The notes below the pieces were generated by a model, which saw only the letters and a list, made by a program, of their open reading frames with translations, was not told the origin of the DNA and did not search any database. This document shows, piece by piece, positions 224-17,242 of a DNA stretch of 20,000 nucleotides (within the stretch, counting starts at the first letter, position 1; every line of letters begins with the position of its first letter). Origin of the DNA: Candidatus Fermentibacterota bacterium (GTDB lineage Bacteria; JAFGKV01); NCBI GenBank assembly GCA_016928395.1, contig JAFGKV010000096.1, positions 49,127-69,126 on the forward strand, written 5' to 3'. The translations under genes were made by a program, and so were the position numbers.

Positions 224-370
224 AAGGAACGCGGAGCGCGGAATGCGGAGCGCGGAATGCGGAGCGAGGAACGCGGAGCGAGGAGCGAGGAACGCGGAAC
301 GCGGAGCGAGGAGCGCGGAACGCGGAGCGCGGAACGCGGAGCGAGGAGCGCGGAACGAGGAGCGCGGAAT
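224..370 (+). repeat. Tandem heptamer array, 21 units, consensus G(C/A)GGA(G/A)(C/T)
   Basis: Counted directly: AAGGAAC at 224-230, then 20 in-register 7-mers at 231-370 (GCGGAGC, GCGGAAT, GAGGAAC, GAGGAGC, GCGGAAC). The array starts one base after the kinase stop codon. Confidence 0.95.
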
Positions 371-379
371 GGCATGAAC

Positions 380-440
380 TCCCGCAGAGACCGAGAGCTC
401 GGAGCGCCATGATTTCCCGCAGAGACGCAGAGGCGCGGAG
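380..440 (+). repeat. Two copies of the octamer arm TCCCGCAGAGACGCAGAGGCGC(A/G)GAG (degenerate at 380-404, near-intact at 415-440)
   Basis: 415-440 matches the left arm of the GxxExxY cassette (4275-4300) at 25/26 positions. Confidence 0.9.
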
Positions 441-450
441 AATGCAGATC

Positions 451-485
451 TCGGAGTGCGGAGCGCGGAACGAGGAGTGAGAAAT
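451..485 (+). repeat. Second short heptamer run (TCGGAGT GCGGAGC GCGGAAC GAGGAGT GAGAAAT)
   Basis: Same 7-nt register and consensus as 224-370. It runs directly into the four-helix-bundle remnant. Confidence 0.8.
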
Positions 486-575
486 GAGCAGGATGAACTG
501 AGGGAGAAAGCGAAGGCATTCGTCCTCACGAAGGTTAGACTGGCGAACCCGCTGCCTACCACCCCAGAGGGGCGA
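477..575 (+). pseudogene. 5' remnant of a four-helix-bundle (23S rRNA IVP-like, TIGR02436-type) gene
   Basis: The translation VRNEQDELREKAKAFVLTKVRLANPLPTTPEGR follows the family N-terminal pattern as I recall it (L..R.K.F.L....L...LP....GR). The expected continuation (QL.RS.TS.GANY) is missing. It sits right after heptamer repeats. Confidence 0.6.
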
Positions 576-661: not shown

Positions 662-3600
662 GTGAGCAAGAACGCCGCGATCTTGGTCGTTGACGATGAT
701 CCCGCGCTGCTGCGGGCAACCTCTGCGGTGCTTGCCTCGGCCGGACACACCGTGCATGAGGCCAGAAGCGCCGCCGAGGCGTTGGAGAAGGTGAAGACCT
801 GTTCGCCGGACCTGGTGCTGGTGGACGTGGTCTTGCCCGATATGAGCGGCCTCGAAGTCAGTCGCCGGATCAAGGCCGATTCGTCCTTGACCGACATCAT
901 CGTGGTACTCATGTCATGCCTTCGCACCGACTCGACAAGCCAGGCCGAAGGGCTGGAGGGCGGGGCCGATGACTACATCGCCCGCCCGGTCTCCAATCGG
1001 GAGCTTGTAGCACGGGTGCACGGCTTCCTGCGGACTAAGCGCGCGGAGGCGGCGCTGAGGGCGTCTCTGGAGCGCAGCCAGCAACAGCAGGCAGTGGTCG
1101 CTGCGGTTGCCACGTCTCCCCACCTCGCTGCGGGGGATGTGCCTGAACTCGCCCTTCAACTTACTGAGCTCGCCGCCAAGGCACTTGGCGTCGAGCGCGT
1201 AGGAGTGTGGCTGTGTGACGACGACGGAAACGAATTGCGCTGCGTGGACCTCTATGAGGACTCCGCGGGGCGTCATTCCGCGGGCGCGGTGCTGCAACGG
1301 CATGAATACCAGAATGAGTTCGACGCCCTGAGCGCGGCGAAGTACGTGGATGCCGATGACCCGTTGACTGACCCACGGACGGCCGGGTATGTGGCGGGAT
1401 ACCTGAAGCCACTGCGTATCACATCAATGCTGGATGCGGTCATCCGGAGTGCAGGGCGGATTCTCGGAACCCTCTGCTTTGAGCACGTGGAGAGGACCCA
1501 CCGCTGGGAGCCGGATGAGATCGCATTCGCGTGTCAGCTCGCAGACCAGGTCGCGCTGGCAATAATGAACCAGGCGCGCAGGAAGGCGGAAGAGGCGCTG
1601 CGGGAGAGCGAGGAACGAAATCGCTCCATTGTGGCGGCATTGCCTGATCTGCTCTTCCGAATATCCGCCGACGGACGCTTCATTGACTGTCGGGCCAATA
1701 GCCCGGAGCTATTGCTGCTCCCACCTCACCAAGTCATCGGCAGACGAATAGCGGAGATCTTGCCGCCGGACTTGGCACACCTCACCGAGAAAAGGGTGCG
1801 GGAAGCGCTCGATAGCGGACAACTGCAGGTCTATGAATACTCGCTCACCCTGGAAGGCCATGCGCACTGGTTTGAAGCTCGAATGACAACCAGTGGGGCC
1901 AACTCCGTGCTGGCGCTCATCCGCGACATCACCACACGCAAGCTGGCCGAACGGGCGCTGCGGGAATCGGCTCAGAAGTGGAACACCACCTTCGACGCCA
2001 TTGGGGACTGCATGGCCCTGATGGACACCGAGCAGAACATCCTCCAATGCAACAGGGCCTTCGCCGAGTATCTGGAGAGGCCCCTCTCTGAGATCATCGG
2101 CCGGAAATGCTATAGTCTAGTCCACACCGACGGCCGACCGGCAGAAGGCTGTCCCTTCGACCGGACGCTGCACAGCAAGCGGCGCGAGACCATGGAGATG
2201 CAGGTCAACGGCCGCAGCTTCGAGGTCCTGGTGGACCCCATTCTGAGCGAGGATGGCGAGATCACCGGCATCGTTCACATCCTAGCCGAGACTACCGAGC
2301 GCACGCAGGTCATGGACGCGTTGCGACGGAGCGAGGAGCGGTATCGCACGCTGGTGGAGGGCATGGCCGAGGGCCTCATCGCGGGAGACAACGACGATCG
2401 GATTCAGTATGTCAACGCCCGGTTCTGCCAGATGATTGGGAGGGATCCCGAAGAGCTGATCGGAAAGGTCGGCTACGAGGTCTTCGCGCCGGAGGACGAG
2501 CGGGAGTCGATCAGGGCGAAGACCCGCCTGCGGCAGCGAGGGGTCAGCGACACCTACGAAACGAGAATGACCACTGAAGACGGAAGGGAGATCTGGGTGT
2601 CCATCTGTGGTTCGCCGGTGTACGGCCCGGATGGGGCGGTCGTCGGCTCGATCGGCCTGGTCACCGATGTTACCCAGCGCAGACTGGCCGAGGAGGAGCT
2701 GCGGGAGAGCGAGGGGCGTTTCCGGGCAGCGTTCGAAGGGTTGCATGATGCAGTCACCATCGTCACTGAAGACGGGAAGTTCCTCGACTGCAACCAGAGG
2801 GCGCTGGAGATGTTTCGCGTCGAGAGCAAGGCCCGATTTATTGCGCGGCGCCCCGCCGATTTCTCTCCTCCCTTCCAACCTGACGGGCGCGAATCCGTCA
2901 CGGCATCGCGCGAGAGGCTGAGGGAGGTCCTTGAGAAGGACGGATTCGTGCGCTTCGAATGGCTGCATCAACGGGCCGACGGAGAGGCGTTCCCGGCCGA
3001 GGTGGTGCTCACCACCTATCAACGGGGGGGGCGGAGTATCATCCAGGGTGTGATCCGCGACATCACCGCCCGCCGGCGGGCGGAAGAGGAACGCGAGAAG
3101 CTTCAAGGGCAATTGCTGCATGCGCAGAAGATGGAGGCTGTCGGACTGCTGGCGGGCGGGGTGGCGCATGACTTCAACAACATGATCCAAGTCATTCTCG
3201 GGCATACGGACATGGCGTTGGGGCAGGTTGCCTCGGTGGATCCGCTGCTCGCCGATCTTGAGGAGATCCGCACGGCCGCTCAGCGGTCGGCTGCCCTCAC
3301 GCGGCAGTTGTTGGCCTTCGCCCGCAAACAGATCGTGACACCCAAGGTGCTGGACCTGAACGCAACGGTCGAGGGGACACTGAAGATGCTGCGTCGGCTG
3401 ATCGGCGAAGACATCGCGCTTTCGTGGAAGCCAGGAGCCGGGCTGTGGAGCGTGAAGATGGATCCATCGCAGGTGGACCAGGTTCTGGCGAACCTGTGCG
3501 TGAACGCGCGGGATGCGATCAGAGGGGTGGGCGAGGTCGCCATCGAGACGAAGAACGTCACGGTCGACGAGGCATGTTGCGCGGATCGCGCTGGCTTTGT

Positions 3601-4246
3601 TCCGGGGTCGTACGTGCAACTTTCCGTGAGTGACGACGGGTGCGGGATGGACAAGGAGACCCTCGGGAGGGTGTTCGAGCCGTTCTTCACGACGAAGGGC
3701 GTGGGAGAGGGAACGGGGCTCGGGCTGTCGACGGTGTACGGCATCGTGAAGCAGAACGAGGGATTCATCGACGCATACAGCGAGCCGGGAGCAGGTACGG
3801 TGATCACGATCTATCTGCCGTCGCAGGGAGAGGGAGTGCAGGAGGAGGAGCAGGAGAAGGGATCGGGGGTGCGTCGAGGCGGGGGAGAGACAGTGCTGTT
3901 GGTGGAGGACGACGGGGCGATCCTGCGGATGGGGGCGCGGATGCTGGAGGGTCTTGGGTACCGTGTGGTGACGGCGGGGACGCCGTGGGATGCCATACGG
4001 CAGGCGGAACGTGCGGGAGAGATCGACCTCTTGATCACAGACGTCGTGATGCCCGAGATGAACGGGCGTGAGCTGGCGAGGCGGATCGGCGGGATGAAGC
4101 CGGGTTTGAGATGCCTGTACATGTCGGGCTACACGGCGGATGTGATTGCACACCGGGGTGTAGTAGATGCGGGTGTGCGGTTTCTACAGAAGCCGTTCAC
4201 ACTGGAGGAGTTGGCGCGGAAGGTGCGCGAAGCGCTGGTGGGATGA
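662..4246 (+). CDS. Hybrid sensor histidine kinase: REC-GAF-multiple PAS-HisKA-HATPase-REC (1194 aa, cytoplasmic)
   Basis: N-terminal receiver (ILVVDDD...LVDVVLPDMSG), GAF (ITSMLDAVIR...LCFEH...FACQLADQVALA), about four PAS/PAC units, H-box AGGVAHDFNN, N-box NLCVNARDA, G1 DDGCGM, F EPFFTTK, G2 GTGLGL, and a C-terminal receiver. GTG start with GGAGG upstream. Confidence 0.95.
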   Translation: MSKNAAILVVDDDPALLRATSAVLASAGHTVHEARSAAEALEKVKTCSPDLVLVDVVLPDMSGLEVSRRIKADSSLTDIIVVLMSCLRTDSTSQAEGLEGGADDYIARPVSNRELVARVHGFLRTKRAEAALRASLERSQQQQAVVAAVATSPHLAAGDVPELALQLTELAAKALGVERVGVWLCDDDGNELRCVDLYEDSAGRHSAGAVLQRHEYQNEFDALSAAKYVDADDPLTDPRTAGYVAGYLKPLRITSMLDAVIRSAGRILGTLCFEHVERTHRWEPDEIAFACQLADQVALAIMNQARRKAEEALRESEERNRSIVAALPDLLFRISADGRFIDCRANSPELLLLPPHQVIGRRIAEILPPDLAHLTEKRVREALDSGQLQVYEYSLTLEGHAHWFEARMTTSGANSVLALIRDITTRKLAERALRESAQKWNTTFDAIGDCMALMDTEQNILQCNRAFAEYLERPLSEIIGRKCYSLVHTDGRPAEGCPFDRTLHSKRRETMEMQVNGRSFEVLVDPILSEDGEITGIVHILAETTERTQVMDALRRSEERYRTLVEGMAEGLIAGDNDDRIQYVNARFCQMIGRDPEELIGKVGYEVFAPEDERESIRAKTRLRQRGVSDTYETRMTTEDGREIWVSICGSPVYGPDGAVVGSIGLVTDVTQRRLAEEELRESEGRFRAAFEGLHDAVTIVTEDGKFLDCNQRALEMFRVESKARFIARRPADFSPPFQPDGRESVTASRERLREVLEKDGFVRFEWLHQRADGEAFPAEVVLTTYQRGGRSIIQGVIRDITARRRAEEEREKLQGQLLHAQKMEAVGLLAGGVAHDFNNMIQVILGHTDMALGQVASVDPLLADLEEIRTAAQRSAALTRQLLAFARKQIVTPKVLDLNATVEGTLKMLRRLIGEDIALSWKPGAGLWSVKMDPSQVDQVLANLCVNARDAIRGVGEVAIETKNVTVDEACCADRAGFVPGSYVQLSVSDDGCGMDKETLGRVFEPFFTTKGVGEGTGLGLSTVYGIVKQNEGFIDAYSEPGAGTVITIYLPSQGEGVQEEEQEKGSGVRRGGGETVLLVEDDGAILRMGARMLEGLGYRVVTAGTPWDAIRQAERAGEIDLLITDVVMPEMNGRELARRIGGMKPGLRCLYMSGYTADVIAHRGVVDAGVRFLQKPFTLEELARKVREALVG

Positions 4247-4253
4247 TGATGAG

Positions 4254-4301
4254 CGCGGAGCTCGGAACAATGGATCCCGCAGAGACGCAGAGGCGCAGAG
4301 A
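4254..4301 (+). repeat. Left arm of nested inverted repeat around the GxxExxY gene (heptamer part 4254-4268, octamer part 4274-4301)
   Basis: 4274-4301 is the reverse complement of 4689-4716 at 27/28 positions. 4254-4268 is the reverse complement of 4733-4747 at 14/15. Confidence 0.95.
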
Positions 4302-4687
4302 TGATGAATGAGAACGAGATCGGGACGATCATCGTCGAGTCGGCGATCGCGGTTCATCGAGGCTTGGGACCAGGACTACTCGAGACGGTCTACGAGGTAG
4401 TCCTGGCGCGTGAACTGCGGGACCGTGGCTTGTCTGTTGAACGGCAGCAACCTATCGCAATCGAGTACAAGGGAATCACGTTCGACGAGGGGTTCAGGGC
4501 TGACCTCATTGTTGAAAGACGAGTGATCGTGGAACTCAAGTCGGTCGAGCGGGTGACGGCCGCGCATGCAAGACAGGTCCAGACCTATCTGCGGTTGACG
4601 GGATGCAGACTCGGGTATCTTCTCAACTTCGGCGAGGCGCTGATGAAAGAGGGTATCACGCGATGCGTGAATGGCCTTGCAGAGTAG
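4301..4687 (+). CDS. GxxExxY protein (PD-(D/E)XK nuclease superfamily, PDDEXK_3 type), 128 aa
   Basis: Signature VHRGLGPGLLETVY (GxxExxY), nuclease-like RADLIVE...VELKS motif, and the typical Q..TYL...LGYLLNFG tail. Confidence 0.95.
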   Translation: MMNENEIGTIIVESAIAVHRGLGPGLLETVYEVVLARELRDRGLSVERQQPIAIEYKGITFDEGFRADLIVERRVIVELKSVERVTAAHARQVQTYLRLTGCRLGYLLNFGEALMKEGITRCVNGLAE

Positions 4688-4688
4688 C

Positions 4689-4747
4689 TCTCTGCGTCTC
4701 TGCGTCTCTGCGGGATAGAGCGTATGTCTTCCGTTCCGCGCTCCGCG
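4689..4747 (-). repeat. Right arm of nested inverted repeat around the GxxExxY gene
   Basis: TCTCTGCGTCTCTGCGTCTCTGCGGGAT (4689-4716) and GTTCCGCGCTCCGCG (4733-4747) are complementary to the left arm. Confidence 0.95.
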
Positions 4748-4801
4748 TTCGGAAGGCTCTGCACGCCATCGCTGTTCTGCGAGTATGAGGGGAGGAACGT
4801 C

Positions 4802-7800
4802 ATGACCGGGAAGAAAGGGAACACTCAGAACCGGAAGACCAAGGCGACGCCCGCCACGCCAGCCAAATCGCCCCCAGTCTCGGCGGAGACCGATCAGGCT
4901 GAACCGGGCCCGGTCCCTACGCGGCAGGCGCATTTTCCCATCGTCGGCATCGGCGCCTCGGCCGGGGGCCTGGCGGCCTTCGAAGCCTTCTTCTCCGGCA
5001 TGCCCGCCGACACCGACCCCGGCATGGCCTTTGTGCTGGTGCAGCACCTGGCCCCGGACCATGAGAGCATCCTCACTGATCTGATCCGGCGCCATACCCG
5101 CATGCAGGTCTTCCAAGTCGAGGACGGGATGGTGGTCCAGCCCAACTGCGCGTACGTCATCCCTCCAGGCAGCGACATGGCGTTTCTGAACGGCACGCTC
5201 CAATTGATGGAACCGTCCGCCCCGCGTGGGCAGCGCCTGACGATCGACTACTTTTTTCGCTCCCTGGCCCAAGACCAGCACGAGCGGGCCATCGGCATCG
5301 TACTTTCGGGCACGGGAAGTGACGGCACCCTGGGCGTGCGTGCGATCAAGGGCGAGGGTGGCATGGTTATGGCGCAGAACCCCGCATCCACTGAGTACGA
5401 TGGCATGCCGCGCAGCGCCATTGCCACCGGCCTGGTGGACTATGAGCTGCCTCCGGCCGAGATGCCCGCCCAGCTCATCGCCTACGTAACTCATGCGTTC
5501 GGCACGCCGCCCCGGCCCTCCACAGCCACGGCGTCCGCGGTCGAGAACGACCTGAAGAAGATCTTCATCCTGCTGCGCGCCCACACCGGCCACGACTTTT
5601 CCCGGTACAAGTCGAGCATGATCAACCGCCGCATCGAGCGGCGCATGGCCGTCCACCAGATCGAAACGATGGACGGGTATGTCAAGCATCTGCAGCATGC
5701 GCCTGAGGAGCTTGACGCACTCTTCCGGGACCTGTTGATCGGCGTGACCAGTTTCTTCCGCGATTCGGAGGCCTTCCGGGCACTCGAGGAACAGGTCATC
5801 CCAAAGCTTTTCGCCGGCAGGCCCGCGAGCTCCGTGATCCGCGTCTGGTCGCCAGGATGTTCCACCGGCGAGGAGGCCTATTCCATCGCAATCCTGCTCG
5901 CCGAACGTCAGGAGGCGATGAAACAGAGTTTCAAAGTGCAGATCTTCGCCACCGACATCAGCAGCCAGGCTATTGTCGCGGCCCGGGCCGGCCTCTATCC
6001 GGCCAGCATTGCCGCAGACCTCTCGCCGGAGCGGCTGATGCGCTTCTTCACGGCCGAGCCCGACGGTAGCGCGTACCGAATTCACCGGGGCATCCGCGAC
6101 ATGCTGGTCTTTTCCGAGCAAGATGCGATCGAGAACGCACCCTTTGCGAAACTCGACCTCATCAGTTGCCGCAATCTCCTGATCTACATGGGCGGGGACC
6201 TGCGGAGGAACCTCATACCCATGTTTCACTATGCGCTGAAGCCGGGCGGTTATCTCTTTCTGGGCACTTCCGAAACCGCGGACGAGTTTGGCGATCTGTT
6301 TACCGCGTTAGACCGGAAATCGAAGCTATATGAGCGCAAAGAGGAGACTCACGGCACAAAGCACACGGCGATGAGGCGGTTTCTCCCGGCCATGACGGCG
6401 ATAGATGTGGCGCTCCCGCGAGCCGTCGAAAAGGCCGCGAACGCTCCGAAGCTGCCGCTGCGCGAGCTGACCGAACAGGCGCTGCTACTGCAGGGCGGGC
6501 TGGCCGGCGTACTGGTCAACTACCACGGGGACATCCTCTACCTCCACGGCCGCACCGGGCAGTACTTGGAGCCGGCCCCAGGCGAGGCTGGAACCAACAA
6601 CATCCTGAAGATGGCCCGCGAAGGGTTGCGGCGCGAACTGACCGTGGCCCTCCGCAAGGCCGTGAGGACAAGAGAAGTCATTCGCTGCCCGGGCCTGCGC
6701 GTCAAGACGAATGGCGACGTTTCCACGGTCAACCTGACCGTGCGCCCGGTGGCCCCGAGCCTGGCCGCACCTGCGCAAGGCAAACCCGGCGCGGCGATTG
6801 AGACGCCCCTGTTCCTGGTCGTCCTGCAGGAGACGCGGTCGGACAAGTCGGACAAGTCAGACGCATCCGACACACCGGACGCCAACGCGCGCATCGCGGC
6901 GCTCAAACAGGAACTACGGTCCAAGGAGGAATACCTCGATGCTACCATCGAGGAACTGGAGACCTCCAACGAAGAACTCAAATCATTCACTGTGGAGATG
7001 CAGTCGGTGAACGAGGAATTGCAATCCACCAACGAGGAGCTGGAAACATCCAAAGAGGAATTGCAGTCGGTGAACGAGGAACTGGCCACGATCAACGCCG
7101 AACTGCAGACCAAGGTGGCCGATCTGTCGCGGGCCAACAACGACATGAACAACCTGCTGGCAGGCACCGGCATTGCCACCGTCTTCGTGGACCTGGACCT
7201 GCGCATCCTGCGCTTCACCCCCCGCGCCATTGAGATTGTTAAGCTGAGGGTGAGCGACGTGGGCAGGCCCGTGGGCCACATCGTCTCCAACTTGGTGGGC
7301 TACGATCGCCTGGCGATGGACGCGCAGGCCGTGCTGGATACTCTGACTCCCAAAGAGCTGGAGGTGCAGACCCGTGCAGGAGTGTGGTACGCGATGCGCA
7401 TCCTGCCCTACCGCACGCTGGACAACGCGATTGAGGGCGCCGTGATCACGTTTGTCGACATCACCGAGACCTGGAAGATCCGGGAGGCGCTGCGGAAGGC
7501 GAACGAACTGCTCCGCCTGGCGGTTGTCGTGCGCGATGCGCACGATGCGATCACCGTGCACGACCTGGACGGCCGCATCATCGCCTGGAATCCGGGAGCG
7601 GTGAGGATGTATGGCTGGAGTGAAGCCGAGGCGTTGGCGATGAATGCCCGCGAACGGATCCCGAAAGGGCTTCGAGACCAAGCGTTGGTCAAGGCACATC
7701 AGCTCAGCCAGGCTCAGGTTCTAAAGCCGTTTCGCACAGAACGGCTCACTAGGGACGGTGCCGTCGTGGAGGTCTGGATGACCGCCACGGCATTGGTGAA

Positions 7801-7897
7801 TGAGACCGGGCAAGTGTATGCGATCGCGACAACGGAACGGTCGATCGGATCAACGAATGCCCACACGAAGGAGGCCCGCGATGGCTCGCAGGGATAA
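4802..7897 (+). CDS. cheBR: CheB methylesterase - CheR methyltransferase - coiled coil - PAS fusion protein
   Basis: CheB catalytic motifs GIGASAGG, VQHL and GTGSDG. CheR motifs RVWSPGCSTGEEAYS, IFATDI and DLISCRNLLIY. NEELQS heptad coiled coil and C-terminal PAS domains. Start placed at ATG 4802 (GGAGG at 4791-4795); the longer ORF from 4724 only reads through the repeat arm. Confidence 0.93.
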   Translation: MTGKKGNTQNRKTKATPATPAKSPPVSAETDQAEPGPVPTRQAHFPIVGIGASAGGLAAFEAFFSGMPADTDPGMAFVLVQHLAPDHESILTDLIRRHTRMQVFQVEDGMVVQPNCAYVIPPGSDMAFLNGTLQLMEPSAPRGQRLTIDYFFRSLAQDQHERAIGIVLSGTGSDGTLGVRAIKGEGGMVMAQNPASTEYDGMPRSAIATGLVDYELPPAEMPAQLIAYVTHAFGTPPRPSTATASAVENDLKKIFILLRAHTGHDFSRYKSSMINRRIERRMAVHQIETMDGYVKHLQHAPEELDALFRDLLIGVTSFFRDSEAFRALEEQVIPKLFAGRPASSVIRVWSPGCSTGEEAYSIAILLAERQEAMKQSFKVQIFATDISSQAIVAARAGLYPASIAADLSPERLMRFFTAEPDGSAYRIHRGIRDMLVFSEQDAIENAPFAKLDLISCRNLLIYMGGDLRRNLIPMFHYALKPGGYLFLGTSETADEFGDLFTALDRKSKLYERKEETHGTKHTAMRRFLPAMTAIDVALPRAVEKAANAPKLPLRELTEQALLLQGGLAGVLVNYHGDILYLHGRTGQYLEPAPGEAGTNNILKMAREGLRRELTVALRKAVRTREVIRCPGLRVKTNGDVSTVNLTVRPVAPSLAAPAQGKPGAAIETPLFLVVLQETRSDKSDKSDASDTPDANARIAALKQELRSKEEYLDATIEELETSNEELKSFTVEMQSVNEELQSTNEELETSKEELQSVNEELATINAELQTKVADLSRANNDMNNLLAGTGIATVFVDLDLRILRFTPRAIEIVKLRVSDVGRPVGHIVSNLVGYDRLAMDAQAVLDTLTPKELEVQTRAGVWYAMRILPYRTLDNAIEGAVITFVDITETWKIREALRKANELLRLAVVVRDAHDAITVHDLDGRIIAWNPGAVRMYGWSEAEALAMNARERIPKGLRDQALVKAHQLSQAQVLKPFRTERLTRDGAVVEVWMTATALVNETGQVYAIATTERSIGSTNAHTKEARDGSQG
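6838..6880 (+). repeat. In-frame 9-nt tandem repeat in the CheBR linker (encodes SDKSDKSDASDTPD)
   Basis: GTCGGACAA GTCGGACAA GTCAGACGC ATCCGACAC ACCGGAC read directly. Confidence 0.75.
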
Positions 7898-13662: not shown

Positions 13663-14054
13663 AACACACTATTCTCCTCATCGAAGACAATGAGCAGAAC
13701 CTCTACCTTGCTACGTTCCTTCTGGAACAGAATGGTTTCGATGTGATCCCGGCCCGAACCGGACCTGAGGGAATCGAACTGGCCGGCCGGATCGTGCCCG
13801 ACCTTGTTATTCTCGATATCCAATTGCCCCAGATGGACGGCTACGCAGTGGCGCGAGCCTTGAGACAGAACCCGACTCTGAAGGACGTGCCCATTGTGGC
13901 AGTCACCTCCCACGCGATGGTGGGCGACCGGGAGCGAACGCTGGAGGCTGGATGCAACGGTTACATCGAGAAACCCATTGACCCCGATACGTTCAGGAGC
14001 CAGATCGAAGAGCATCTGAAGACCCGACCGACGAGTGGAGGGACTGAACCATGA
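13659..14054 (+). CDS. Single-domain response regulator (DivK/CheY-like receiver)
   Basis: MKHTILLIEDN...LDIQLPQMDG...AVTSHAMVGDRE...GCNGYIEKPI. ATGA overlaps with both neighbours (13659-13662 and 14051-14054). Confidence 0.95.
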   Translation: MKHTILLIEDNEQNLYLATFLLEQNGFDVIPARTGPEGIELAGRIVPDLVILDIQLPQMDGYAVARALRQNPTLKDVPIVAVTSHAMVGDRERTLEAGCNGYIEKPIDPDTFRSQIEEHLKTRPTSGGTEP

Positions 14055-16918
14055 CCATCCTCATCGTGGACGACAATGAGCAGAACCTCTATCAACTCCA
14101 AGTGCTTCTGGGCGGTAATGGGTATGAAGTCGTGGCCGCCCCCAATGGCGCGGAGGCGCTGGCCAAGGGCCGGCAGAATCCGCCGGACCTCATCATCAGC
14201 GACATCTTGATGCCGGTGATGGACGGGTTCGCCCTCTGTCGGAAGTGGAACCAAGACGAGCGTCTGCGGTCAGTCCCCTTCATCTTCTACACTGCCACCT
14301 ACACGGACGGGCGGGACCGTGAGTTCGCACTCGGCCTTGGGGCTGCGCGGTTCATCGTCAAACCGGTGGAGCCGGAGGTCTTCATACAGACGATTCAGGA
14401 AGTCATCCAGCAGGTTCAGCATCCTGCCTCCGGGGCGACCCGCGAGCGGATCGAGGCGCCTCCGGGCGATGAAGCCGGGTACTTGAAGCAGTACAACGCG
14501 ACGCTGATCAGGAAGCTGGAAGCGAAGATGCAGCAACTGGAGCAGACTAACCGCGAATTGGAGCTGAGCCTTGCGGACCACAGGCATATGGAGCACGATC
14601 TGGAGGCGTCCGAAACGCGGTACCGTCGCCTGTTCGAAGCCGCCAAGGACGGCATCCTGATCCTCGATGCGGACACGGGAATGATCGTTGACGTCAATCC
14701 GTTCCTGGTGGAGTTGGTGGGGTGTTCGCGCAACGAGTTCCTTGGTAGGCACCTCTGGGAGATCGGCCTGTTCCGAAACATTGTAGCCTCCAAGGCTTCG
14801 TTCGCCGAATTGCAGGACAAGGGATACGTCCGTCATGAGGATCTCCCGCTTGCGACCCGTGACGGGCGGGAGATCGATGTCGAGTTCGTCAGCAATGTGT
14901 ACCGTGTCGACAACCAGAGGGTGATCCAGTGCAATGTCCGTGACATCACTGAGCGAAGGCAGGCGGAGAAGGCCTTGCGCCAGAGCGAGGATCTCCTGAA
15001 TGAAGTCGGGCGCATTGCGAAGATCGGCGGGTGGAAGATGGATCTGATCACCCGCAAGGCCGCCTGGACGCGAGGCACGTACGACATCGTTGAGATCGAG
15101 CCCGGCCAGCCCATCCCGGGCCCGGACGAGCACGTGGACTACTACCTCCCGGAATACCGGCCCATGATCGCCGAGGCGATGCGGGCGTTGATCGAAGACG
15201 ACAAACCCCTGGATTTCGAGGCCCAACTCCGCACCGCCAAGGGGAACATCAAGTGGTGCCGTGCCCAGGCGAGGGCTCTCCGTGAAGGGGAAACGACGGT
15301 TGAGGTCCGCGGCACCTTCCAGGACATCACCGCGCGCAAGCAGGCGGAGGAGGCGTTGCGTGCGAGCGAGGCTCAGCTTTCTAACGCACTGCAAATAGCA
15401 CGCGCCGGTCACTGGGAGTACGACGTGGGCCGCGACCTCTTCACGTTCAACGACAACTTCTACCGAGTCTTCCGCACCGCCGCCTCGGAGGTGGGTGGCT
15501 ACCAGATGTCCTCGGCGGACTACGCTCGACGGTTCTGTCATCCCGACGACGCAGCCATTGTGGCACAAGAGGTTCGCGCGGCCATCGAGTCTGCCGATCC
15601 GGACTACAGCCGCCAGATTGAACACCGCAGTCTTCGTGCCGACGGAGAAGTCGGTTACATCACGGTACGTTTCTTCATCGTCAAGGACCCCCAAGGGCGC
15701 ACCGTGAAGACCTACGGCGTCAACCAAGACATCACCGAGCGGAAGAAGGCGGAGGAAGAGCGAGCGAAGCTGCAGGCGCAGCTTCAGCAGGCGCAGAAAA
15801 TGGAATTCGTGGGGCGCCTGGCCGGGGGTGTCGCCCATGATTTCAACAATCAACTCCAGGTCATATTCGGGTACACGACCTTTGCGCAGAAACGGGTGGA
15901 TCCCGGCGACTTGCTGTACGGCGATCTGGAAGAGATCCGCAAAGCTGCCCAGCGGTCGGCGGACCTGACACGTCAACTGCTCGCCTTCGCCCGCAAGCAG
16001 ACCATCGCCCCGGAGGTACTGGACGTGAACGCGGCGGTGGAAAGCACTCTCAAGATGCTGCGGCGGCTCATCGGGGAGAGCATCGACCTGGCCTGGCTGC
16101 CGGGCAAGAACCTGTGGCAGGTCAAGGTTGACCCGGCGCAGATCGATCAGATCCTTGCGAACCTGTGCGTGAACGCCCGGGATGCGATCGAGGGGGTCGG
16201 CAAAGTGACGATCGAAACGGGAACCGCCCAGTTCGATGAGATCTCCTGCTCTGAACATGCCGGATGCGTGCCAGGGGAGTATGTGGTGCTGGCGGTGAGC
16301 GACAACGGCTGCGGGATGGAACCGGCCGTCCTGGAGCACCTCTTTGAGCCGTTCTTTACGACCAAGGGAGTAGGTGAGGGAACTGGATTGGGTCTGGCCA
16401 CGGTGCATGGGATCGTCACGCAAAACAAGGGATTCGTTAGCGTTCGGAGCGAGCCAGGCGAAGGCACGATCTTTCGGATCTACCTGCCGCGACACGAGGG
16501 CGAGGCGGTGGATGCCTGGAAGGAGAAGGCGAAGGAAGTGCCGAAAGGGCGAGGCGAGACTGTGCTCGTCGTGGAGGACGAACTCTCGATCTTGCGCCTG
16601 GCGAGAAGAATGCTGGAGAGCCTTGGCTACGTGGTACTGACGGCAGGGACCCCCAGCGAGGCAGCGGGGCTGGCCTCGCACCACACCGGTGAGATCCATC
16701 TGCTCATCACCGACGTGGTGATGCCTGAGATGACGGGAAGAGACTTGGCGGCACGGATCGCAGAGACGAGGCCTGAGCTGAGATGTCTCTACATGTCGGG
16801 GTACACGGCGGATGTGATCGCACCCTTTGGCCTGCTCGAGGACGGCGTGCAGTTCATGCAGAAGCCGTTCACGCTGGAGGAGTTGGCGCGGAAGGTGCGG
16901 GAAGCGCTGGAGGGGTGA
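14051..16918 (+). CDS. Hybrid sensor histidine kinase: REC - 3 PAS - HisKA - HATPase - REC (955 aa)
   Basis: N-terminal receiver (ILIVDDN...SDILMPVMDG...FYTATYT...KP), PAS/PAC units, AGGVAHDFNN, ATPase boxes, and a C-terminal receiver ending REALEG. Confidence 0.95.
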   Translation: MTILIVDDNEQNLYQLQVLLGGNGYEVVAAPNGAEALAKGRQNPPDLIISDILMPVMDGFALCRKWNQDERLRSVPFIFYTATYTDGRDREFALGLGAARFIVKPVEPEVFIQTIQEVIQQVQHPASGATRERIEAPPGDEAGYLKQYNATLIRKLEAKMQQLEQTNRELELSLADHRHMEHDLEASETRYRRLFEAAKDGILILDADTGMIVDVNPFLVELVGCSRNEFLGRHLWEIGLFRNIVASKASFAELQDKGYVRHEDLPLATRDGREIDVEFVSNVYRVDNQRVIQCNVRDITERRQAEKALRQSEDLLNEVGRIAKIGGWKMDLITRKAAWTRGTYDIVEIEPGQPIPGPDEHVDYYLPEYRPMIAEAMRALIEDDKPLDFEAQLRTAKGNIKWCRAQARALREGETTVEVRGTFQDITARKQAEEALRASEAQLSNALQIARAGHWEYDVGRDLFTFNDNFYRVFRTAASEVGGYQMSSADYARRFCHPDDAAIVAQEVRAAIESADPDYSRQIEHRSLRADGEVGYITVRFFIVKDPQGRTVKTYGVNQDITERKKAEEERAKLQAQLQQAQKMEFVGRLAGGVAHDFNNQLQVIFGYTTFAQKRVDPGDLLYGDLEEIRKAAQRSADLTRQLLAFARKQTIAPEVLDVNAAVESTLKMLRRLIGESIDLAWLPGKNLWQVKVDPAQIDQILANLCVNARDAIEGVGKVTIETGTAQFDEISCSEHAGCVPGEYVVLAVSDNGCGMEPAVLEHLFEPFFTTKGVGEGTGLGLATVHGIVTQNKGFVSVRSEPGEGTIFRIYLPRHEGEAVDAWKEKAKEVPKGRGETVLVVEDELSILRLARRMLESLGYVVLTAGTPSEAAGLASHHTGEIHLLITDVVMPEMTGRDLAARIAETRPELRCLYMSGYTADVIAPFGLLEDGVQFMQKPFTLEELARKVREALEG

Positions 16919-16919
16919 C

Positions 16920-17056
16920 GCGAAACGCGGAGCGCGGAACGCGGAACGCGGAGCGACTTCAGTCGCGATAGAGCGAAGCGGAATGGGGAAGGGCATGATC
17001 CCGCAAGGACACAGAGGCGCAGAGATGAAAAGACATCAGAATGCGGAGTGCGGAGC
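16920..17056 (+). repeat. Empty copy of the post-kinase repeat module (5 heptamers, octamer arm with ATG, 2 heptamers)
   Basis: Heptamers at 16920-16954. ATCCCGCAAGGACACAGAGGCGCAGAGATGA (16998-17028) matches 4274-4304 at 28/31. GCGGAGT GCGGAGC at 17043-17056. Confidence 0.9.
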
Positions 17057-17242
17057 AGTGAGGCAGGATCGCCCGTCCCTCGAGTCCGTTCAGGGTCAAC
17101 TCTGCGCCGCCGCGGGGCAGTTCCTCGGTCTCGATCTTCGGCATGTGCGGCTGGCTTCCGCGAACGCGAACACGTGCAATTCAACTCGGCGTGGTGTGCG
17201 AACCCGGCCGCGCACCAGCCCGCGAATGGAGAGCAGACAGGA

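Follow-up and report, generated by a model that had tools for sequence, protein, structure and literature searches.

A 20,000-nt window of a Candidatus Fermentibacterota genome (G000:C126:49127-69126; the assembly, G000, comprises 4.79 Mb in 343 contigs with 62% GC) contains a small gene of the GxxExxY family, PDDEXK_3 in Pfam, that lies between two inverted arms built of tandem octamers. Comparison of this locus with its relatives leads us to read positions 4274-4716 of the window as a horizontally mobile arm-gene-arm cassette that is nested in an older cassette site. The core of this reading, a mobile unit of arm, gene and arm whose nesting derives from an older cassette site, we consider very probable; with the roles proposed below for the arms added to it, the account as a whole is on balance the probable one. 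A first-pass annotation made from the letters of the window had pictured a selfish cassette mobilised by its own nuclease. The mobility was upheld, both by the absence of the gene from relatives in the phylum and by the existence of filled and empty sites, whereas the part given to the nuclease can be suggested by analogy with other systems.

The repeat search of the window returned an inner inverted repeat at 4274-4301 / 4689-4716 (28 nt, 96% complementary, 27/28), in which the sole mismatch, a G in the left arm against a T in the right, would be a G-U pair in the forward transcript. The description of a 128-residue gene set between such arms was confirmed. Tandem Repeats Finder (TRF) resolved both inner arms into tandem repeats, three copies of CGCAGAGA at 4278-4301 and three of TCTCTGCG at 4689-4712. 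The fit around the open reading frame (ORF) is close: the inner right arm begins 1 nt after the stop codon, and the inner left arm covers the ribosome-binding region of the gene, where GAGG, 7 nt before the ATG and within the purine-rich units of the arm, is the only Shine-Dalgarno-like sequence. As relatives mostly align from residue 2 of the protein, translation may really begin at the second ATG (4304), in which case the first would be no more than the end of the inner left arm. An outer inverted repeat of heptamers, first described as 15 bp long, is also real (4254-4268 / 4733-4747, 14/15) but extends further, to 18 nt at 4251-4268 / 4733-4750 (89%, 16/18). The pairing of arms at this locus is beyond chance: the score of the flanks in a local alignment for inverted repeats (IR score) was 51 against a maximum of 24 among 100 shuffles, and short arrays of the same unit lying inverted within 100-2500 bp of each other form only 14 pairs in the whole 4.79-Mb genome. 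An RNA fold of 4240-4760 closes both pairs of arms at -241.1 kcal/mol (z -6.25), a value that none of 100 shuffles equalled.

Paired arms accompany other members of the family as well. Close relatives of the protein (61-89% amino acid identity) were fetched from 79 metagenome and 80 genome loci, of which 159 in all 147 could be scored; 400 positions displaced by 1-1.5 kb within the same loci served as controls, and arms were called at a flank IR score of at least 28. By this measure arms were present at 86 of the 147 relatives compared with 2 of the 400 displaced controls, and the scores of 98 relatives lay above the 99th percentile of the controls. More distant full-length GxxExxY loci, 13 from seven unrelated genomes, gave IR scores above all 100 shuffles in nine cases, and their arms are tandem 7-9-mers of a related form. 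The arms that the first-pass annotation had pointed out at one locus are therefore found at both close and distant relatives. Where arms were called (86 loci), 42 have an arm that abuts the start of the gene and 40 one that abuts the stop (within -5..4 nt), and the common design is an outer TCTC[GC]C (TCTCSC) block together with three CRCNRAGR octamers. A separate picture was seen in Candidatus Scalindua rubra (G044), which has about 39 PF13366 matches, some 25 of them near full length and including a tandem pair 200 nt apart; in the 13 copies that were read the arms were weak or variable (IR scores 8-35), and many copies have weak or decayed arms.

The orientation of the arms is not random. 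A purine-rich array is nearest upstream and a pyrimidine-rich array nearest downstream in 67 of the 147 loci, and the reverse order (R-ORF-L) occurs in 15, the others having partial arrays or none. This bears on the idea that the locus is an invertible segment, in which the arms would recombine and turn the gene round, so that it works as a phase switch. A gene flanked by inverted repeats is what such a switch would look like, but a free switch would yield the two orientations equally, so that 67 against 15 speaks against inversion; no invertase gene is nearby, the large ORFs all encoding signalling proteins, and among the contig joints listed none changes strand at the arms, which is weak evidence. 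We find an invertible segment hardly credible. The neighbouring gene upstream is also oriented unevenly: of 95 loci, 66 have it on the same strand and 16 on the opposite one, with 13 unclear. No sigma-70-like promoter was found in 3900-5100 of the window. Co-orientation with the upstream gene and the lack of a promoter-like site fit expression by read-through, for which the kinase gene at 662-4246 is the probable source of transcription.

According to the titles of the records, carriers belong to more than 15 phyla: Desulfobacterota, Verrucomicrobiota, Planctomycetota, Binatia, Bipolaricaulota, Thermotogota, Sumerlaeota, Nitrospinota, Gammaproteobacteria, Acidimicrobiia, Chloroflexota, Calditrichota, Lentisphaerota, Kiritimatiellota, Hydrogenedentota and others. 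In a FastTree phylogeny of 137 of the proteins (10 ORFs shorter than 115 or longer than 160 residues were left out), the class of the arms, CGC or CAC, changes only once among 80 labelled cassettes, compared with a mean of 20.2 and a minimum of 15 changes in 200 shuffles of the labels; 50 rows scoring below 28 and 7 with 'other' arms carried no label for arm class. For the 65 rows labelled with a host phylum the same tree needs at least 31 changes, against a mean of 43.7 and a minimum of 38 in the shuffles. Within a cassette the arms also vary together. In the 30 of 62 cassettes that could be phased, and with counts that represent cells rather than independent events, agreement between the arms was 0.98 at position 2 of the octamer (0.55 expected), 0.92 at position 5 (0.39), 0.73 at position 8 (0.30) and 0.61 at position 4 (0.39). 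These comparisons show gene and arms to behave as one evolutionary unit that crosses phylum boundaries.

For the copy in the window an origin by acquisition looks likely. It is the sole PF13366 gene in its genome, and of the other two genomes of the phylum G001 (82% complete) has no PF13366 gene and G002 only a marginal fragment of about 30 residues. Its composition (56.8% GC, with a GC fraction at third codon positions, GC3, of 0.69) differs from that of five neighbouring genes (61.6-63.1% and 0.77-0.83). The copy thus looks compositionally foreign and unique in the phylum as sampled by three genomes, and the syntenic fixity among relatives that the first-pass annotation had named as speaking against mobility was not found. 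As to possible vectors, no relative was found among viral contigs or phage records, and the 7 of 72,556 plasmid records that matched were all below 60% identity and labelled non-mobilizable. An integron cassette was considered and dropped, there being arms on both sides and no integrase among the large ORFs (no dedicated integrase search was made).

The same data bear on a more conservative explanation, that of a resident, non-mobile gene whose flanking repeats are a local regulatory device, a translational silencer or an operator, recruited from the tandem repeats of the genome. Such repeats are plentiful, with 772 non-overlapping arrays of period 7 or 8 in the genome by TRF, the same heptamers and octamers stand at two other flanks in the window, and the left arm spans the ribosome-binding region. 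Against this, homologues of the gene come with homologous arms in more than 15 phyla, neither of the other two genomes of the phylum has the gene, its composition is foreign and relatives have filled and empty sites. The comparative data already contradict a resident gene, which we regard as very improbable.

Filled and empty alleles, whose comparison the first-pass annotation had proposed, exist in three bacterial families, at the junctions occupied by relatives of the cassette. In Lamprocystis purpurea (G041) an insert of 720 nt, composed of a hairpin unit, a GxxExxY gene and a second hairpin unit, lies between two genes; in G055, the only one of 40 relatives searched that has both flanks, these flanks (77% and 81% identical) are joined directly as TAG, 2 nt and ATG. 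Among 41 genomes compared in the Geobacteraceae, G042 and G098 are filled and the flanking genes are adjacent in 14. Four of these 14 empty junctions were read by base and proved to be TAA + 3 nt + ATG, an ATGA overlap, TAG + 2 nt + GTG and a TGATG overlap, and the other 10 were judged from coordinates. Six further Geobacteraceae genomes have matches to the cassette elsewhere, at 70-74% and without these flanks. In the Prosthecobacter family the filled junction of G043 holds about 880 nt, among which are a masked stretch and duplicate copies of the upstream gene's 3' end, whereas in G137 the junction is empty, stop and start overlapping in ATGA. Coordinates place the two genes just as close together in G141 (tblastx) and in G135 (blast). 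For the Calditrichales locus L180 no relative was matched for a comparison of filled and empty sites. Since the flanks in these comparisons are only 73-91% identical, the exact boundaries of the cassette are blurred.

Some features of these junctions deserve separate mention. At the same Prosthecobacter-family junction, L239 (G158:C132, reverse strand 2640-3340) has a 630-nt insert of other palindromic repeats, and the stop/start junction itself seems to attract hairpin elements. In G043 (L130:2600-3560) tandem duplications flank the cassette on either side, their segments of about 70-130 nt each joining a coding 3' end to the adjacent arm; these hint at template switching at hairpins. The stop codon of the upstream gene falls within the arm in L130 and L204.

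Presence and absence of the cassette exactly between conserved co-directional genes, in three families, might also be expected of a free-standing gene of the homing-endonuclease type, which would cut the empty stop/start junction so that repair copies the cassette in, with the arms serving for insulation or regulation. Homing endonucleases with a PD-(D/E)XK fold are known, the PD-(D/E)XK active site is conserved here, and no recombinase was seen among the large ORFs, although no dedicated integrase search was made. The insertion sites, however, are unrelated in sequence and gene content (kinase and CheB-CheR; an ABC ATPase and its neighbour; another gene pair), so that a sequence-specific homing site does not fit, and a spread over more than 15 phyla would be impossible by homology-dependent homing alone. 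Moreover, hairpins without a gene have spread too. We consider homing improbable, and return to the arm-gene-arm cassette.

The outer and inner arms had been taken together as one nested unit. The nesting is real, but comparison of paralogous sites shows the outer heptamer arms to be the repeated 3' flank of kinase paralogues and not part of the GxxExxY cassette. The stop codon of the kinase sits 4 nt ahead of the outer left arm. Behind two further kinase-type gene ends of the window (226-480 and 16918-17060; Table 1) GCGGAGC / GCGGAAC heptamers occur together with a solo octamer arm in direct orientation and with no ORF. A GAGGCGC variant is common to the solo octamer arms and to the left arm at 4274-4301. 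In G001, which is of the same genus, three paralogous kinase 3' ends are found in three differing states: in the first, heptamer arms surround a 117-residue ORF of PF05635, the family of the 23S rRNA intervening sequence (IVS) protein (E 2e-17); in the second, heptamers are followed by a solo octamer arm and then by further heptamers; and the third has an octamer hairpin that encloses no gene but only a loop of about 60 nt. Positions 4732-4756 of the window are 96% identical to the right-arm region of the four-helix-bundle cassette of G001, and 440-560 align with the heptamers and the first ~45 nt of the PF05635 ORF of G001, the match being weak beyond. As the outer arms enclose a PF05635 gene in the sister species, one cassette lies inside the arms of another, the cargo having been either replaced or inserted. 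The outer arms belong to a site for four-helix-bundle cassettes of which further copies arose when the kinase genes were duplicated, in an order of events that is inferred, and we read the solo arms and the empty hairpin at the paralogous sites as debris of cassette turnover.

Table 1. Features of the window (positions counted from its first nucleotide)
Feature	Position	Strand	Description
GxxExxY / PDDEXK_3 gene	4301..4687	+	128 aa; 127 aa if the start is 4304
Inner left arm	4274..4301	+	ATCCCG and three octamers CGCAGAGR; ends in or at the start codon
Inner right arm	4689..4716	+	three TCTCTGCG octamers and GGAT; reverse complement of the left arm
Outer left arm	4251..4268	+	heptamers GCGGAGC / TCGGAAC
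Outer right arm	4733..4750	+	GTTCCGC GCTCCGC GTTC; inverted copy of the heptamers
Hybrid histidine kinase gene	662..4246	+	receiver, GAF, PAS x3-4, HisKA, HATPase, receiver
CheB-CheR-PAS fusion gene	4802..7897	+	likely start ATG 4802 behind GGGAGG; longest ORF from 4724
Paralogous flank A	226..480	+	behind another kinase-type gene end; no ORF, no inverted partner; heptamer array 226-369, solo octamer arm 418-441, heptamers 452-477
Probable remnant of a PF05635 5' end	484..560	+	1-nt deletion; aligns with the start of the G001 ORF over ~45 nt
Paralogous flank C	16918..17060	+	behind kinase gene 14051-16918; heptamers 16918-16952, degenerate solo octamer arm ~17000-17026, heptamers 17041-17057

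Downstream of the cassette the CheB-CheR-PAS gene likely starts at ATG 4802, which would leave both right arms intergenic. Contig depth was zero over 4755-4871 in all four metagenome runs, both adjoining bins being covered, which may be an effect of filtering. The heptamer array at 226-369 is far longer than the arms at the other flanks; it runs for 144 nt directly after a stop codon, is uniform in strand, has a period of 14/21 and consists of GGAACGC GGAGCGC units. At least three large signalling genes in the window share a C-terminal receiver motif, ...KPFTL.EL..K.REAL.G*, together with a repeat-bearing 3' flank, so that the signalling cluster grew by duplication of genes together with their flanks.

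The protein encoded in the cassette is probably an active nuclease, to judge from its residues and its predicted structure. Profile searches matched it to PF13366 (PDDEXK_3; E 8e-41, 139.5 bits against a cut-off of 22) and to TIGR04256 (GxxExxY; E 2e-40, 137.8 bits against a cut-off of 35). PDDEXK_3 is the sole Pfam match of the ORF, which does not qualify as a GIY-YIG enzyme or as an HUH (Y1) transposase. The motif residues G25, E28 and Y31 and the catalytic residues D68, E78 and K80 are all present; across 64 sequences there is no variation at G25, E28, D68, E78, K80, Q92 or F110, with Y31 conserved in at least 90%, and the ORF has a length of at least 119 residues in 137 of the 147 relatives. 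The AlphaFold2 (AF2) model has a pLDDT of 93.7 and a restriction-endonuclease-like fold. Its best fold matches by VIA were 3ijm_B (Z 8.7, rmsd 3.2, 101 residues aligned) and BpuSI (3s1s, Z 8.3), the rows listed being mostly known PD-(D/E)XK nucleases, and Foldseek matched it to Cas4, lambda exonuclease and Hjc. The PD-(D/E)XK fold attributed to the family from the outset was thus borne out by the model and by both comparisons; as the VIA Z values are middling, they support the fold only and no function. A sequence search of the PDB with the protein gave weak Csn2 rows only, at E 0.17 or worse, and no solved relative. Its identity with a listed defence protein was tried and rejected, PADLOC and PHROGs having returned weak Cas4-like rows only (E 0.0087 and 3.3e-4). 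A homodimer prediction scored 0.00 against a mark of 0.42, which gives no verdict and was used neither for nor against any reading. In the available part of Steczkiewicz et al. (2012) the entry for PDDEXK_3 is 'Unknown; multiple transfers'.

The arms also exist without the gene. Three consecutive octamers of the arm consensus were sought in 201 Verrucomicrobiota genomes, and the protein was searched for separately. Such triple-octamer arrays were found in 71 genomes, with nearly none in a control in which the consensus was read backwards. A GxxExxY gene (E 1e-10 or better) was present in 65 of the 71 genomes with arrays but in only 36 of the 130 others (odds ratio 28, p 2e-19 by Fisher's test), and in 37 of the 40 that have at least five arrays. 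The arrays far outnumber the genes, for example 194 to 6, and in a 19.5-kb stretch of G197 one filled cassette is accompanied by nine or more L..R hairpins that lie between genes and have no gene of their own, their loops measuring 12-180 nt.

A similar relation, with another protein, is found in the window genome itself. All three confident PF05635 genes of this genome lie between inverted arrays (C206:1251-1850, C231:4859-5372 and C153:1525-2227), and the units of their arms belong to array families ranking first (AACCCTG, 102 arrays), fourth (AATGATGG, 21) and sixth to seventh (ACAGCCG, 16; AGCCGAT, 14) in the genome. PF05635 and these arrays look like a protein and its repeat at the scale of a genome. 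Elsewhere in the same assembly (G000:C157:5302-5563) inverted AGGGTTC arrays surround 205 bp with no convincing ORF, which looks like a gene-less version of the same design.

Whether the arms act as RNA or as a site in DNA was approached through their mismatches, using 62 distinct arm pairs with 1699 positions. The first-pass annotation had looked to compensatory and G-U substitutions for evidence of an RNA stem, and in this it was not supported: among the mismatches, 52 would be wobble pairs in the sense strand and 41 in the antisense strand (p 0.30), so that there is no sense-strand excess of G-U. Among sequencing runs, no RNA run was listed as containing this stretch, and two metatranscriptome runs from the study of X1 contained next to none of its sequence words. 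The lack of an RNA-strand signature, the loose pairing and the conservation of the unit across phyla point to recognition of sequence besides pairing, or instead of it.

This result counts against a purely RNA-level element resembling the rRNA intervening sequences, in which RNase III would cut the stem, loop out the ORF and insulate the operon, the nuclease being unrelated to the process. A good deal would agree with such an element. The predicted fold closes both pairs of arms (z -6.25), there is no promoter-like site, the upstream gene is co-oriented at 66 of the 82 loci that could be assigned, and the same arm design carries the family of the 23S rRNA IVS protein in both the window genome and G001; an IVS with an S23p ORF is excised by RNase III in Coxiella, according to the available text of PMC4990558. 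Apart from the missing strand-specific signal, however, 103 of the 196 mismatches are transversions, and the C-R-C..A-G unit with its outer block is conserved across phyla when a bare stem could drift. In the 15 of 147 loci with the order R-ORF-L the ORF would be outside the loop. Finally, gene-less hairpins reach 150-190 arrays in some genomes, a multiplication for which a copying process at the level of DNA is needed. We therefore think a purely RNA-level element unlikely. A lesser role for RNA would be compatible with the mobile cassette: in a read-through transcript the predicted pairing of 28 + 16 bp would hide the ribosome-binding site, and a cut by RNase III could insulate the operon. 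We regard this role, which does not exclude others, as possible but doubtful.

A number of observations weigh against the cassette as we describe it. Clear arms are absent by IR score from 61 of the 147 relatives; where present, arms are 88.5% complementary on average, and the 103 transversions among their 196 mismatches pair in no strand. No transposase domain was found in the cassette and no integrase among the large ORFs, the latter without a dedicated search. No target-site duplication was evident at the three comparisons of filled and empty sites, with flanks of the divergence given above. For the junction in the window itself there is no empty allele, as neither G001 nor G002 has an orthologue of CheB-CheR, so that insertion at this point is argued from the relatives of the cassette and from the paralogous sites. 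Among the metagenome contigs mapped to the window none bridges the kinase to CheB-CheR without the cassette. A joint from 4300 to 4690, which skips 389 nt, occurs in two contigs of X1 and three of X2, but with only the arms, about 23-24 nt per side; forms with the left arm, 16-40 nt and the right arm were also seen in the metagenome contigs, and these cannot be assigned to the organism of the window. The joint and these forms are probably due to other hairpins of the arm family in the metagenome rather than to excision.

The link between arrays and nuclease is subject to similar points. Shared ancestry and genome size inflate the association in Verrucomicrobiota, as do the two arms that every armed gene adds to the count. 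Of the 40 genomes with at least five arrays, 12 have a close homologue of the protein (E 1e-40 or better) and 28 do not, and in one genome with 154 arrays the best GxxExxY match is at E 2.5e-17. The octamer family has only four TRF arrays in the window genome, at least three of them within the window, so that this genome has nothing like a REPIN population (REPINs being inverted doublets of repetitive extragenic palindromic, REP, sequences). The same arm design also brackets genes for four-helix bundles, which are not nucleases, so a nuclease is not required for it.

With these points in mind we propose the following for the arm-gene-arm cassette. A small PD-(D/E)XK nuclease gene with no promoter of its own is passed on, by descent and by transfer, as one piece with the two inverted arms that belong to it, each of them a short outer block followed by three CRCNRAGR octamers. 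Related genomes either have the cassette or lack it at orthologous stop/start junctions of operons, and it usually points the same way as the upstream gene. The arms, folded as a hairpin of single-stranded DNA (ssDNA), would be the form recognised during copying of the unit or of the gene-less hairpins derived from it. The encoded nuclease may have in them its cognate nucleic-acid site, in the manner of Ssn with NTS and RAYT with REP, a suggestion that we make tentatively from the analogy with Ssn/NTS and RAYT/REPIN and from the co-occurrence of arrays and gene.

Taken further, and with considerable reserve, GxxExxY could constitute a third independent class of small nuclease with its own hairpin repeat, after RAYT/REPIN and Ssn/NTS. 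This would be a joint proposal with several parts: a PD-(D/E)XK nuclease would recognise tandem-octamer hairpins and form a transposase-free element with them; in more than 15 bacterial phyla the element would copy itself and gene-less hairpins into operons, at their stop/start junctions; and the same arm logic, when combined with four-helix-bundle genes, would be the free-living source of the rRNA intervening sequences as well as of the unexplained heptamer and octamer arrays in many genomes. The doubt that we attach applies to these parts taken together.

GxxExxY/PDDEXK_3 is a large family of unknown function, for which its own arms are the first concrete candidate for a substrate. If insertion at stop/start junctions without a transposase is true, it would be a new route by which genes enter operons without breaking them; it would also provide a source for gene-less hairpin repeats and a link between protein-gene cassettes and the rRNA intervening sequences. 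A small nuclease with specificity for a sequence or a structure could also find use as a tool, which has been proposed for Ssn. For annotation, the cassette explains small 'hypothetical nuclease' genes and short tandem arrays that stand between unrelated genes of an operon. No published description of the arm-gene-arm design was found in the literature searched, which did not extend to subscription journals and supplements.

Among known systems the cassette has partial counterparts. Transposons with terminal inverted repeats (TIR), and the miniature inverted-repeat transposable elements (MITE; see PMC3184786), resemble it in their terminal inverted repeats, their intergenic location and their short gene-less derivatives; it differs from them in having no transposase domain of a known class, in arms that are internally tandem-repetitive and in the lack of a target-site duplication at the three filled/empty junctions (flanks 73-91% identical). 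The 23S rRNA intervening sequences that contain an ORF, which are also found in Leptospira, share with it a size of about 430-500 nt, a single small ORF within the long stem of an inverted repeat, horizontal acquisition and a selfish appearance, and in the sister species PF05635, the family of the IVS protein, is the cargo of the outer arms found at the window locus. The IVS of Coxiella burnetii has 428 nt and an S23p ORF and is excised by RNase III (PMC4990558, available text), an excision that is demonstrated for the IVS whereas the stem of the cassette is a predicted fold. The cassette differs further in lying between protein genes, with no Rfam family in the 20-kb window, and in its cargo, a PF13366 nuclease in place of the S23p / PF05635 four-helix bundle. 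PF05635 genes are also wedged into cas operons (PMC3936711) and are found in rRNA insertions of the candidate phyla radiation (CPR; PMC11270868), and arms are not described in the available parts of these two papers.

RAYT is an HUH tyrosine transposase, vertically inherited and usually present in a single copy. One protein gene between cognate inverted repeats, with gene-less inverted doublets scattered between other genes, is common to the REPIN-RAYT system and the cassette. By contrast with RAYT, the GxxExxY protein has a PD-(D/E)XK fold, the cassette crosses phyla (31 changes of host phylum among 65) and may be multicopy, one genome having as many as 25 or more matches, and the octamer family is nearly confined to the window in the window's own genome. 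In that system the REPINs flank the RAYT genes, as stated in the available text of PMC3337134. With Ssn/NTS the resemblance extends to a small stand-alone nuclease gene that has a short hairpin-forming repeat on both sides; the ssnA genes are flanked by cognate hairpin repeats, and the repeat is also present in many gene-less copies in carrier genomes, with a spread that is wide and patchy (Chenal et al., Nat Commun 2025, PMC11893778, available text). Co-occurrence is a further likeness, 65 of the 71 genomes with arrays having a GxxExxY gene, and it does not extend to the window genome with its four arrays. Site-specific cleavage of ssDNA is demonstrated for Ssn, a GIY-YIG enzyme, in the available text of the same paper, whereas the cassette, with its PD-(D/E)XK protein, is known from its sequence. 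The arms of the cassette differ from NTS in being tandem octamers in strict inverted order that abut the start and stop of the gene, and in that gene and arms behave as a single insertable unit.

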